This document shows, one piece after another, positions 24,994 to 45,503 of a stretch of DNA of 64,000 bases. Every line of letters begins with the position of its first letter. Position 1 is the first letter of the stretch. Below the pieces are notes generated by a model. That model worked only from the letters and a program-made list of their open reading frames with translations. It made no database searches and was not told where the DNA came from. Source of the stretch: a phage; sequence record PX880102.1; one strand, 5' to 3'. The translations under genes and the position numbers were made by a program.

Positions 24994-25512
24994 TTAATAA
25001 CCTCGGTCTTGACGTGCGAAATTTTCAGCATTTTTCAGATAATAAAGTTTAAAGATTTCTTCCGCTGTAAGACCAAGACCCTGGAACATATTCAGAACGA
25101 AATGAAGAATATCAATCATTTCAAATTTAATTTCTAACTGGTCTTGTGGAGACAAATCAGTAATCAGAGTTTCACGACGTTCACCATGCTGCGACTTCCA
25201 AGGTTTCCATACAGCAGATGCGTCTTTTTCACCATTACTCATACCACCAAGAGAAGTCAGAAGTTCACGGAATTCATCGTCAATATAATCTTTCTGATTA
25301 CGCAACCAATCAACAACTTCACCGGCAGTAGCTAAGTCATCAGGATGACGATTATATTCAGGTTTATCTTTAGCTAAACGAACCTGCAAAGATTTCTGCA
25401 TATCAAGCATTACCTGCAGCGGGTCTTTTTCATCGCCGAGAATATCCCAATATTCATTTTGAGCTTTATCAGCGCCTTCAATCAGTTGTGAACATTCGTT
25501 AAAGTAAGCCAT
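24994..25512 (-). CDS. 56: dCTP pyrophosphatase (MazG-like dCTPase/dUTPase), 172 aa
   Basis: MAYFNECSQLIEGADKAQNEYWDIL... MazG-type NTP pyrophosphohydrolase helices; ORF-track start trimmed to the ATG after SD AAAGGA. Confidence 0.85.
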   Translation of the reverse strand: MAYFNECSQLIEGADKAQNEYWDILGDEKDPLQVMLDMQKSLQVRLAKDKPEYNRHPDDLATAGEVVDWLRNQKDYIDDEFRELLTSLGGMSNGEKDASAVWKPWKSQHGERRETLITDLSPQDQLEIKFEMIDILHFVLNMFQGLGLTAEEIFKLYYLKNAENFARQDRGY

Positions 25513-25552
25513 TATTTTTCCTTTCAATTCATGGGTTAGTAGATTAATTATA

Positions 25553-25568
25553 CAATAAATATATAAAG
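25553..25568 (+). promoter_or_regulatory. late-promoter-like box (AATAAATA / TATATAAA) upstream of the plus-strand ORF
   Basis: cAATAAATAtataaa 22 nt upstream of the ATG at 25584. Confidence 0.3.
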
Positions 25569-25583
25569 CAATAAGGAGGACAT

Positions 25584-25784
25584 ATGGTACAAAAATTAAT
25601 GGCACTTGTTAATGCCATCAAAGGTAATAAGAAACGTATAGCTTTTACTATTTCTGCTATGGTAGGAATTTTACTCTGGAACTTTATTTTATCACCAATT
25701 GCAATTGCGCATGGTGTTAATATTCCAGTAGTTACTCTTGATACATTCGTAGATCTAGCATTTGCTTTAGTTGGGTTGATTTAA
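25584..25784 (+). CDS. small membrane protein (66 aa) on the opposite strand to the surrounding early genes
   Basis: strong SD AAGGAGG 6 nt before the ATG; two hydrophobic segments; fills the gap between 56 and 61. Confidence 0.5.
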   Translation: MVQKLMALVNAIKGNKKRIAFTISAMVGILLWNFILSPIAIAHGVNIPVVTLDTFVDLAFALVGLI

Positions 25785-31773: not shown

Positions 31774-31825
31774 TCATTTTTTCCATAGGCATCATTATAT
31801 TTTCCTCACTGGTTAAAGATAGAGT

Positions 31826-31851
31826 AATTATAACACAATAAATTTAGGCAT
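31826..31851 (-). promoter_or_regulatory. candidate MotA-dependent middle promoter upstream of uvsX
   Basis: minus-strand aaTGCCTAA (MotA-box-like, one mismatch to TGCTTNA), 12 nt, TATAAT. Confidence 0.35.
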
Positions 31852-32693
31852 TAATCAACTGCTATTGGATGAATAGCATTAAACTTATGAAATGCTTCTG
31901 ATTTTTCTTTACGCGAAACGCACATGCGAAGAACCTTTAGTGGTTCATCTTCTTCACCCAACGATTTTCGTTTTTCAATATTAGAAGTTTTCCAACGAGC
32001 TTGCTCTGGAAACTCTCTATTGATTTGTTCAAGCGCTCTATTATGTTTAGAATTACTACGAATTGAACTACATCCGCCAGGAGCTTGTGCTTTTCCAGAT
32101 ACAACTAGATATTTGAACAAGGCCAAATGCGGATAACCTTGATTAATTAAATTGAGAAATGCATACATATCTTCGCATAAATCAATTTTTCCATACCCAA
32201 TTTGTTCTGTCGTAAGTTTTCCGAGGTCATACCATGTATTCGTGAATCCATATGAATTTTCACGATAATTACCCCAAGATGAAGTAATTTTAAAAATTGG
32301 TAGACGAGCATGGCCATGATAATACCCGCAATCCATGGCATCTTCAACGTATTGAATTAATTCATAGAACTGTTCACGAGTTAATTGATTAACTTTATCT
32401 ACGCAGCGACGATCATCTCTCTTTCGCATTGAACTCATACGAATAGTAGTATCATCGTCAATCATCCAGATTCGTTGACCTGCATACATATCAGTAATTG
32501 CTTTACGAGTTCCAGCAATTCCGTTTACATCATCAGGAATAGTTATAATTTTAGCTCTAGACCCATAGGCATCATAATAAGCTTTTTCTTCATGCTCACG
32601 CACTACAATATGTGGTTCATAATCAGTCGGAAACATATCAAGGGCAGAAACTGCCCCGACACGCTGATAGCTTGGAATTACGAATTGAATCAT
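31851..32693 (-). CDS. DNA glycosyltransferase candidate (GT-A-like, DxD), 280 aa, at the beta-gt locus
   Basis: position between uvsX and 42 where T4 has beta-glucosyltransferase; WMIDDDTTIR DxD-type motif; start trimmed from the GTG of the ORF track to the ATG. Confidence 0.5.
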   Translation of the reverse strand: MIQFVIPSYQRVGAVSALDMFPTDYEPHIVVREHEEKAYYDAYGSRAKIITIPDDVNGIAGTRKAITDMYAGQRIWMIDDDTTIRMSSMRKRDDRRCVDKVNQLTREQFYELIQYVEDAMDCGYYHGHARLPIFKITSSWGNYRENSYGFTNTWYDLGKLTTEQIGYGKIDLCEDMYAFLNLINQGYPHLALFKYLVVSGKAQAPGGCSSIRSNSKHNRALEQINREFPEQARWKTSNIEKRKSLGEEDEPLKVLRMCVSRKEKSEAFHKFNAIHPIAVD

Positions 32694-33430
32694 TTCCACT
32701 CACCGTTATAATCTTTTTTCACAATATGAGTTTCGCCAGTATTCCACCAATGATCAACCAAGTAAAAATGACGAGAATATACATGAAGACTTCCAACATT
32801 CCATATAATAGAACCTGCTTTATACTGACGAGTTGAATCGCCTGCATTCAAATCAGATACTAATTTATCTAATACGTATTTTTGCCATGCATAATCATTA
32901 CGGAATCCGAAGACCACGTCATTTGAGCGCATGCTTACTACTGCATTGACTTTCTTATCACGAATCAGGTATTGTACTGTATTCGTGCACATGAAATCTG
33001 ACATGCCGTCTTTGCTGTAGTCAAACTGCATAGATGGACGAGTATAAATCATGATACCACGTCGAGAATCAGGATTTTGACCAAGTTCAGCTAAACACAT
33101 ATCATACTGAGCATAGTTATCTTCTGACCAGATAGCCCAACCATAATTCGAGTTAATTTCGCCTTTAGAAGATGCTACCTGCTGCCAAATCTTTGGTGTT
33201 TCACCTGGAATATCTTTGACAAACAGACTTTGAGACTTGTACCATTCAAGTTCACGCTGAATGTATTCATCATTAAGAGCGCCAAAAATAAACGGTTCAT
33301 CTGCTACAAATGATGCGCCAATAATTTCAATAGTTTTAACGCCGGTTTTATCAACTACGAAATCTTTTTCCTTTAATGCAAGCCCCAAATGAAGACGGAT
33401 TTCTTCAACTGTCATAGAGTCACTAATCAT
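32690..33430 (-). CDS. 42: dCMP hydroxymethylase, 246 aa
   Basis: thymidylate-synthase-like fold; same length as T4 gp42. Confidence 0.93.
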   Translation of the reverse strand: MISDSMTVEEIRLHLGLALKEKDFVVDKTGVKTIEIIGASFVADEPFIFGALNDEYIQRELEWYKSQSLFVKDIPGETPKIWQQVASSKGEINSNYGWAIWSEDNYAQYDMCLAELGQNPDSRRGIMIYTRPSMQFDYSKDGMSDFMCTNTVQYLIRDKKVNAVVSMRSNDVVFGFRNDYAWQKYVLDKLVSDLNAGDSTRQYKAGSIIWNVGSLHVYSRHFYLVDHWWNTGETHIVKKDYNGEWK

Positions 33431-33437
33431 TTAAACC

Positions 33438-33587
33438 TCAATTGATACATTCATATTTAACTTGTAACAGTAATAAACCCCAACCTAAAATAATAGTTGG
33501 AATCATAAGAGGAACCGTTACACTATAGTATATACTTATTATAATCATCAAGATTAAAAGCAACACTGCTATAATTTTGCTTTTCAT
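33438..33587 (-). CDS. small membrane protein (49 aa), imm.1-like
   Basis: MKSKIIAVLLLILMIIISIYYSVTVPLMIPTIILGWGLLLLQVKYECIN; ATGA overlap with the imm stop; not in ORF track. Confidence 0.45.
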   Translation of the reverse strand: MKSKIIAVLLLILMIIISIYYSVTVPLMIPTIILGWGLLLLQVKYECIN

Positions 33588-44284: not shown

Positions 44285-44302
44285 AAAGGGCCGAAGCCCT
44301 TT
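44285..44302 (-). other. AAAGGGCCGAAGCCCTTT hairpin downstream of agt
   Basis: GC stem with UUCG loop; stronger T-run on the plus side. Confidence 0.45.
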
Positions 44303-45503
44303 ATTTTGTAATAATGTCAAACTGTTCTTTAAAGCAGAAGCTTGAATCTTGATGCTGATACAAAAATTCATATGCTTTTTCTCGCTCACGGTCATAAAGA
44401 GCTCGGTCAGATGACAGTTCTTTAATACGTTCAAATGTTGATTCCATGTCATTTTCATCAAACCAAATGATACCGCTATCATGCGAGGTCAAAGGAGTAT
44501 TATCAACACGGAATTTTAAATTTTCGCCAGTAGATTTCCAAAATACCGGAATTGTTCCACATGCACCAAGCTCGAGATGAGTATATTCTAAAGAGCGCTG
44601 TAGATATTTTTTATCCAACTTACTCAGCTGATAACCAAAACCGGATTTACTCATACGTTCAAGCATTTCGCTATTTACATAACGGTCAAGAATTTGCGTT
44701 GGCAAATTAGGAGCAATTTTAATTTGGTCTACTTGATGAAGACGATAATACTCGTATGGAATTCCTTTTTCATTAATAGGAATGAACGCTGGAGAACGTT
44801 CCAGACCTTCCATAATAGTACTTAGCCCAACAGGTTTAAGATGTTTTTCGTGAAAATCAAACATCTGATAAAAACCTTTCCATGTAGTCGTACGACCAAT
44901 CCAACGGTTGACATTCATGTTAATTTCAGAAACATCTTTCCAGTAGGTTGATCGAACCTTCGCAATATCCATAGGAGGCTGAAAGTTGTATACAGTCGGT
45001 GCTTCTTCAATATCATCAAACAGAGAAACTGTTTCTGGATACCATTCTTTCATCAGAACTTTATTAAAATCGCCATTATCAGAATGACTAAAAATAACAT
45101 CAGCTCGACGAACAGTTTCTTCTAATCCCAAATTTCGGCGCAAAGAAAGAGAAGAATGGTCATGTTGATAAACTACAACACGAACCGAAGGTTTAATGTT
45201 ATCAATAATTTTTTTATAGTTATTAATAGTGTCTTCTTCAACTGAAGTAGCAGGAACTGAATTGATAATTAGAATATCACAATCATTTACCAGCTTAAGT
45301 GTTTTATCGTATTCTTTTGCCAATAAAACCGGAATTGAAAATGATTTATAATCATGCGCACAGTTACGAGTAAATGATTTATCTTTAGCATAAACCAAAG
45401 TTACTTCATGACCATTTTTAATAAACCAATCACGTTGCTCAAGAGAAAATTTAGTTACACCACAACCTTCAAGACCTCGAGCCATAAAAATACATACTTT
45501 CAT
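44301..45503 (-). CDS. agt: DNA alpha-glucosyltransferase, 400 aa
   Basis: M.ICIFMARGLEGCGVTKFSLEQRDWFIKNGHEVTLVYAKDKSF... near-identical to T4 alpha-gt. Confidence 0.95.
   Translation of the reverse strand: MKVCIFMARGLEGCGVTKFSLEQRDWFIKNGHEVTLVYAKDKSFTRNCAHDYKSFSIPVLLAKEYDKTLKLVNDCDILIINSVPATSVEEDTINNYKKIIDNIKPSVRVVVYQHDHSSLSLRRNLGLEETVRRADVIFSHSDNGDFNKVLMKEWYPETVSLFDDIEEAPTVYNFQPPMDIAKVRSTYWKDVSEINMNVNRWIGRTTTWKGFYQMFDFHEKHLKPVGLSTIMEGLERSPAFIPINEKGIPYEYYRLHQVDQIKIAPNLPTQILDRYVNSEMLERMSKSGFGYQLSKLDKKYLQRSLEYTHLELGACGTIPVFWKSTGENLKFRVDNTPLTSHDSGIIWFDENDMESTFERIKELSSDRALYDREREKAYEFLYQHQDSSFCFKEQFDIITK

Follow-up and report, generated by a model that had tools for sequence, protein, structure and literature searches.

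A gene in the position of the T4 beta-glucosyltransferase that very probably encodes a T2/T6-type beta-glucosyl-HMC-alpha-glucosyltransferase

Which enzyme is encoded where phage T4 carries its beta-glucosyltransferase gene, and what sugar would it place upon the phage DNA? The question is raised by the window examined here, i.e., the whole 64,000 nt stretch of phage sequence record PX880102.1, in which a first-pass annotation had reported a 280-aa ORF with the motif WMIDDDTTIR between uvsX and gene 42, replacing the 351-aa T4 beta-GT. The coordinates, length, motif and flanking genes it gave were all correct; comparison with the T4, T2 and T6 genomes placed the ORF at the T4 b-gt position and confirmed that the matching T4 slot holds segA and the 351-aa b-gt. 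The genes considered are the following.

31851..32693, minus strand: ba-gt (ggt/TAGT), predicted beta-glucosyl-HMC-alpha-glucosyltransferase, 280 aa plus TAA
30592..31773, minus strand: uvsX, ORF forming the downstream flank of ba-gt, in synteny with T4, T2, T6 and TB37
32690..33430, minus strand: gene 42, dCMP hydroxymethylase, source of the hmC precursor; 96% identical to T4 gp42; Pfam thymidylate synthase family
44301..45503, minus strand: alpha-gt (a-gt), which makes the alpha-glucosyl-hmC acceptor; PF11440 (AGT), 781.9 bits; 396 of 400 residues identical to TB37
24994..25512, minus strand: gene 56, dCTPase/dUTPase, clearing the pool of dCTP; 73% identical to T4 gp56 over 171 aa

The ba-gt reading frame was intact on the minus strand, opening with an ATG at 32693 and closing with a TAA at 31853-31851, with the WMIDDDTTIR motif at residues 76-85 (window 32439-32468); a GTG two codons upstream of the ATG provides an alternative start that would yield 282 aa. 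The start codon shares bases with the gene 42 stop in an ATGA overlap, the arrangement expected of translationally coupled genes, and 77 bp (31774-31850) separate the gene from uvsX. A sigma-70 promoter scan around ba-gt gave 16 sites, compared with 13.2 expected, and was thus uninformative. When the phage collection was searched by megablast, ba-gt was found in 475 records, all at full length and at least 90% identity, most of them Tequatroviruses of Escherichia, Shigella and Yersinia; the common annotations were beta-glucosyl-HMC-alpha-glucosyltransferase, beta-alpha-glucosyltransferase and glucosyl transferase. The ORF is clearly a real gene, because identical or near-identical proteins are encoded by hundreds of phages.

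Several features of the surrounding DNA were observed in passing. Two homing endonuclease genes of T4 were absent from the 64-kb window: segA, which in T4 lies between uvsX and b-gt, had no homologue by tblastn with T4 segA and was missing from the spacer to uvsX, and no homologue was found of segF, which adjoins gene 56 in T4. A 49-aa hydrophobic ORF (33438-33587, minus strand) occupies the interval between imm and gene 42; its counterparts in AndreasVesalius, TB37 and BGP are annotated as hypothetical or phage proteins, and the T4 annotation is empty in the corresponding 153-bp gap. A stable RNA hairpin (32632-32665, minus strand; -19.3 kcal/mol, z = -3.2) lies about 30-60 nt inside the ba-gt coding region, just past the gene 42 stop. 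A simple scan scored it as terminator-like with a weak U-tract, and the record of Yersinia phage fPS-65 annotates a terminator within its stretch matching ba-gt; the hairpin might have a part in controlling read-through or translation of ba-gt.

The genomes of T2 and T6 each carry an ORF of equal size in the corresponding gene 42/uvsX slot, and the window protein was identical to these at 278/280 residues (T2) and 276/280 residues (T6), i.e., 99% in both cases. In further records of T2 and T6 (MH751506 and MH550421) this ORF is called ggt, beta-glucosyl-HMC-alpha-glucosyl-transferase. The window protein was identical over 280/280 residues to that of AndreasVesalius (Bas42, a BASEL phage, MZ501050), annotated "hmC beta-alpha-glucosyltransferase ba-gt", and to that of the Durham phage TB37 (OZ035850); both share its synteny and differ by about 2-3% silent DNA changes. 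It matched PHROG 842 (beta-glucosyl-HMC-alpha-glucosyltransferase) at 299 bits and the Pfam family TAGT (TET-associated glycosyltransferase, PF20691) at 38.9 bits against a gathering cutoff of 27.5, over all but the first of the 205 profile positions (2-205; residues 3-207). TAGT was the only family returned by the Pfam search, and NCBIfam holds no model for this protein nor for that of a-gt. The first-pass annotation had proposed a glycosyltransferase of T2/T6 type, to be doubted if the protein proved close to T4 beta-GT or belonged to a family that does not act on DNA; instead it was close to the T2 and T6 enzymes, the best BLASTP match to T4 beta-GT had E = 2.2, and PF20691 and PHROG 842 represent a DNA-modifying glycosyltransferase family.

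We conclude with high confidence that the ORF encodes the T2/T6-type ba-gt (ggt; Pfam TAGT), a small GT2-like enzyme of GT-A fold making gentiobiosyl-hmC. The observed part of this explanation consists of the orthology and synteny, the family assignment, the fold of the model and the complete gene set; transfer from UDP-glucose to alpha-glucosyl-hmC is predicted from the orthology together with the literature on T2/T6 and TB37.

The fold and the residues likely to matter for catalysis were assessed within the wider family. When 1.84 billion representative proteins were searched by profile, 2144 relatives of ba-gt were returned at E <= 1e-3. The family alignment was built from 124 relatives plus the window protein (125 members, with identities down to about 16%), all of which match PF20691. 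Only five positions were invariant in the 125 members (R11, D80, D175, G186 and G207), and the window protein carries each of them; I6, P7, R63, D79, D81, L180, G206 and R212 were conserved in at least 90%. The motifs that contain the charged invariant residues are located as follows.

32451..32459, minus strand: codons for D79-D80-D81, DxD-type motif; D80 invariant, D79 and D81 in at least 90% of 125
32661..32663, minus strand: codon for R11 of the N-terminal motif IPSYQR; invariant (10/10 and 125/125 members); His in T2
32169..32174, minus strand: codons for E174-D175, the "ED" motif; D175 invariant in 125

An AlphaFold2 model prepared from the 125-sequence alignment (pLDDT 93.9, pTM 0.92) superseded an earlier, moderately confident model from 10 sequences (pLDDT 69.9). 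The modelled protein is a single GT-A domain with a Rossmann-like alpha/beta/alpha arrangement, in which D79-D81 directly follow the strand at 74-78, as a DxD-type motif after the fourth beta-strand, and the DDD lines up with LDDD in AvpGT, a GT2 enzyme. The GT-A-like reading with a DxD motif, suggested beforehand from the letters, was thereby borne out by both the model and the conservation of the DDD. An AlphaFold3 model of the T6 TAGT has been described as a GT-A fold, sister to GT2 (PMC13216743). Among predicted viral structures the top match was the beta-glucosyl-HMC-alpha-glucosyl-transferase of Klebsiella phage PKO111 (TM 0.95), followed by TAGT-annotated proteins. No solved structure within the family was found, phmmer giving nothing meaningful and the 125-member profile reaching at best E = 0.09 against solved chains; that best match was a marginal one to GT2, and polycystin matches were rejected as spurious.

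The known product has a beta linkage formed from UDP-alpha-glucose, and the ba-gt mechanism is for that reason taken to be inverting. Inversion fits with GT2-like neighbours that are mostly inverting, and this makes the E174-D175 motif a plausible catalytic base and D79-D81 a plausible metal/diphosphate site. On the model and by analogy with GT2 enzymes, the metal and UDP-sugar diphosphate are probably bound by the DDD, E174-D175 probably supplies the candidate catalytic base, and R11 within IPSYQR probably contacts the nucleotide. The GT2-like GT-A enzymes used for comparison (AvpGT, 9jma; PcManGT, 6yv7; TarP, 6h1j; BcsA, 9fmv) are only 8-15% identical to ba-gt and act upon lipid, glycan or protein acceptors, whereas ba-gt is a soluble, single-domain protein acting upon glucosylated DNA. 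The TAGT family is named for members that adjoin TET/JBP dioxygenases in other phages; here, by contrast, a dCMP hydroxymethylase resembling thymidylate synthase supplies the hmC, and the enzyme's acceptor is a sugar carried by the base.

The first-pass annotation had also listed gene 42, gene 56 and alpha-gt (at 44301-45503) as pathway partners, and this set was complete within the window. Acceptor supply is provided for by these three genes without beta-GT, which was not found anywhere in the 64-kb window by tblastn with T4 b-gt. As a side observation, gp42 is much closer to its T4 counterpart than is gp56, a contrast that suggests mosaic divergence among the genes of the hmC pathway; the mechanically called gene 56 ORF (24994-25605) starts 31 codons before the homologous Met (25512). 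T4 and BGP have dam between genes 56 and 61; the window lacks it, with a gap of just 268 bp at that place (25513-25780), and, as in TB37, a 66-aa hydrophobic ORF lies there on the opposite strand (25584-25784).

In the proposed pathway gp56 would clear dCTP from the nucleotide pool and gp42 would make hm-dCMP, to be incorporated into phage DNA at replication. The alpha-GT would then put glucose on hmC in alpha linkage, and ba-gt would move a second glucose from UDP-glucose to the 6-OH of the first, with inversion (beta-1,6), giving gentiobiosyl-hmC.

How much gentiobiosyl-hmC is made varies among phages with this gene. T2 DNA was reported to contain 5% gentiobiosyl-hmC (with 70% alpha-glucosyl) vs 72% in T6 (PMC11078745, PMC6024577); after deletion of ba-gt from T6, the authors state that only alpha-glucosylated hmC was left, presumably at about 75% of cytosines (PMC11078745, Nature 2024). 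Homologues of both T4 a-gt and T2 ba-gt have been found in twelve RB phages (PMC6024577, 2018), and phages encoding these glucosyltransferases commonly combine a TAGT with either alpha-GT or beta-GT (PMC13216743). The synteny seen here, with TAGT at the T4 beta-GT position and alpha-GT present, has been described as well (PMC13390438, AEM 2026). In that study HPLC/MS of TB37 and six other Tequatroviruses gave about 1/3 5-hmdC and about 2/3 alpha-gentiobiosyl-mdC, with alpha-glucosyl-mdC at background only, whereas in BGP, EL and Geo the ratio of hmdC to alpha-glucosyl to gentiobiosyl was about 1:2:2; phages with the a-gt plus ba-gt set had no beta-glucosyl-hmC and retained about 1/3 bare hmC (PMC13390438). 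Among the Durham phages, the presence of dam co-occurs with the intermediate glucosylation pattern (PMC13390438).

The level of modification in the present phage is a matter of inference, and gene presence alone does not set it, because T2 has ba-gt yet makes about 5% gentiobiosyl-hmC and phages of the BGP type are intermediate. The hypermodification of T2/T6 type that had been foreseen for this phage held for gene identity and gene set; the term itself needs refining, as it covers both the T2 and the T6 level, and T6-like is the better description. This preference follows from the ba-gt allele, which is that of TB37 and has neither of the two T2 changes, R11H and P251S. Given the gene identity, a TB37/T6-like pattern is the best prediction and a likely one. 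Because both glucosyltransferase alleles match those of TB37, gentiobiosyl-hmC is predicted to make up about 2/3 in the virion DNA and bare hmC 1/3; mono-alpha-glucosyl-hmC should be scarce and beta-glucosyl-hmC absent.

It is unlikely that ba-gt works as weakly here as in T2, leaving mostly mono-alpha-glucosyl-hmC with a few percent gentiobiosyl-hmC. That outcome is suggested by T2 itself, whose gene is 99% identical and whose DNA is nevertheless mostly alpha-glucosylated, by the intermediate state of BGP, EL and Geo, and by the window protein having fewer differences from T2 (2) than from T6 (4). However, both T2-specific changes are missing from the window protein, one of them at the family-invariant R11, and the protein is identical to that of TB37, for which about 2/3 gentiobiosyl-hmC was measured. 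The a-gt is likewise TB37-like (4/400 residues differ, vs 36 for BGP, whose ba-gt differs at 7 residues), and dam is missing between genes 56 and 61, as in TB37 but unlike BGP, where it lies between genes 61 and 56.

Two further readings depart from the T2/T6 reaction altogether. The enzyme might take hmC itself as its acceptor, or a donor sugar that is not glucose, so that the modified base would differ from that in T2/T6; the TAGT family is large and diverse, as the 2144 representatives indicate, and some TAGTs occur with beta-GT or alone, implying other specificities elsewhere in the family. We consider this very improbable, given that phages in which gentiobiosyl-hmC was measured encode a protein 100% identical to this one, that the T6 enzyme, characterised genetically, matches it at 99% identity, and that no sugar-nucleotide biosynthesis genes were seen adjoining its gene. 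The shared genomic slot might alternatively mean a functional replacement of T4 beta-GT, i.e., a mono-beta-glucosyltransferase for those hmC sites that a-gt leaves bare, and this we regard as extremely improbable. Although T4 b-gt has the same position, uses UDP-glucose and forms a beta linkage on phage hmC DNA, it acts on bare hmC, whereas ba-gt extends alpha-glucosyl-hmC. Identity with T4 beta-GT was rejected, the sequences not being similar and the model showing a single GT-A domain rather than the two-domain GT-B fold (PF09198; PMC13216743), and beta-glucosyl-hmC was not seen in phages carrying these genes, where bare hmC still made up about 1/3. Gentiobiosyl-hmC formation by a T2/T6-type ba-gt is accordingly the reading we retain.

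The T2 and T6 genes share with that of the window the length, slot, partners (a-gt, 42 and 56) and the DDD, ED and IPSYQR motifs, apart from lesions peculiar to each. T2 has H11 and S251 in place of R11 and P251; codon 11 lies at L003:5092-5094 of T2 (AP018813), corresponding to window 32661-32663. Both changes are present in all T2 records and in SV76, and the exact T2 haplotype around codon 11 was found only in seven T2 records and SV76 among 50,697 phage records. In T6 record AP018814/NC_054907 (L004:4135-4974) one GAT is lost from GAT-GAT-GAT by a 3-bp deletion that converts DDD to DD, and the protein has N40, G55 and H106 where the window has Y40, D55 and R106. The DD variant occurs in only 3 of the 50,697 phage records, which marks DDD as the norm. 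The other T6 record, MH550421 (L007:4138-4987), keeps the DDD and has an amber TAG at codon 10 (Q10), its CDS being annotated in shortened form from a downstream Met. A scan of IMG/VR returned five loci, too small a sample for population statistics, and none of them had R11H or the DDD deletion. The T6 lesions may be real stock differences or sequencing errors; a different lesion in each of two sequenced T6 stocks suggests that ba-gt is under relaxed selection in laboratory passage.

In the published work found, no cause is attributed to the difference in gentiobiosylation between T2 and T6. R11H may be a candidate cause of the low level in T2, because R11 is among the five residues invariant in the 125-member family. 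We tentatively propose, as a possibility about which considerable doubt is warranted, that the allele shared by the window, TB37 and AndreasVesalius is the fully active natural form, and that the contrast between T2 and T6 stems from a T2-specific hypomorphic change (R11H plus P251S) rather than from gene content or a-gt. If true, T6-like gentiobiosylation would be the default of Tequatroviruses with a-gt and TAGT, and T2 would be the outlier.

The finding is the correct recognition of a known gene, one commonly met with in T4-like coliphages; nothing new in biology is added, since earlier papers already describe the gene and where it lies, the class of fold and the product (PMC13390438, PMC13216743, PMC11078745, PMC6024577). 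It bears upon host defence, as the type of sugar on hmC decides which defences can attack the phage DNA. According to published work, glucosylated DNA is protected from McrBC and McrA. Brig1 excises alpha-glucosyl-hmC, whereas gentiobiosyl-hmC DNA was not degraded in vitro, and DNA of the T6 ba-gt mutant became Brig1-degradable in vitro (PMC11078745). It has been published that BapA does not remove glucose from gentiobiosyl-hmC, and that GmrSD and BrxU still target gentiobiosyl-hmC. Recognition of the T6/TB37-type gene set helps to predict host range and to choose enzymes with which to handle the phage DNA.
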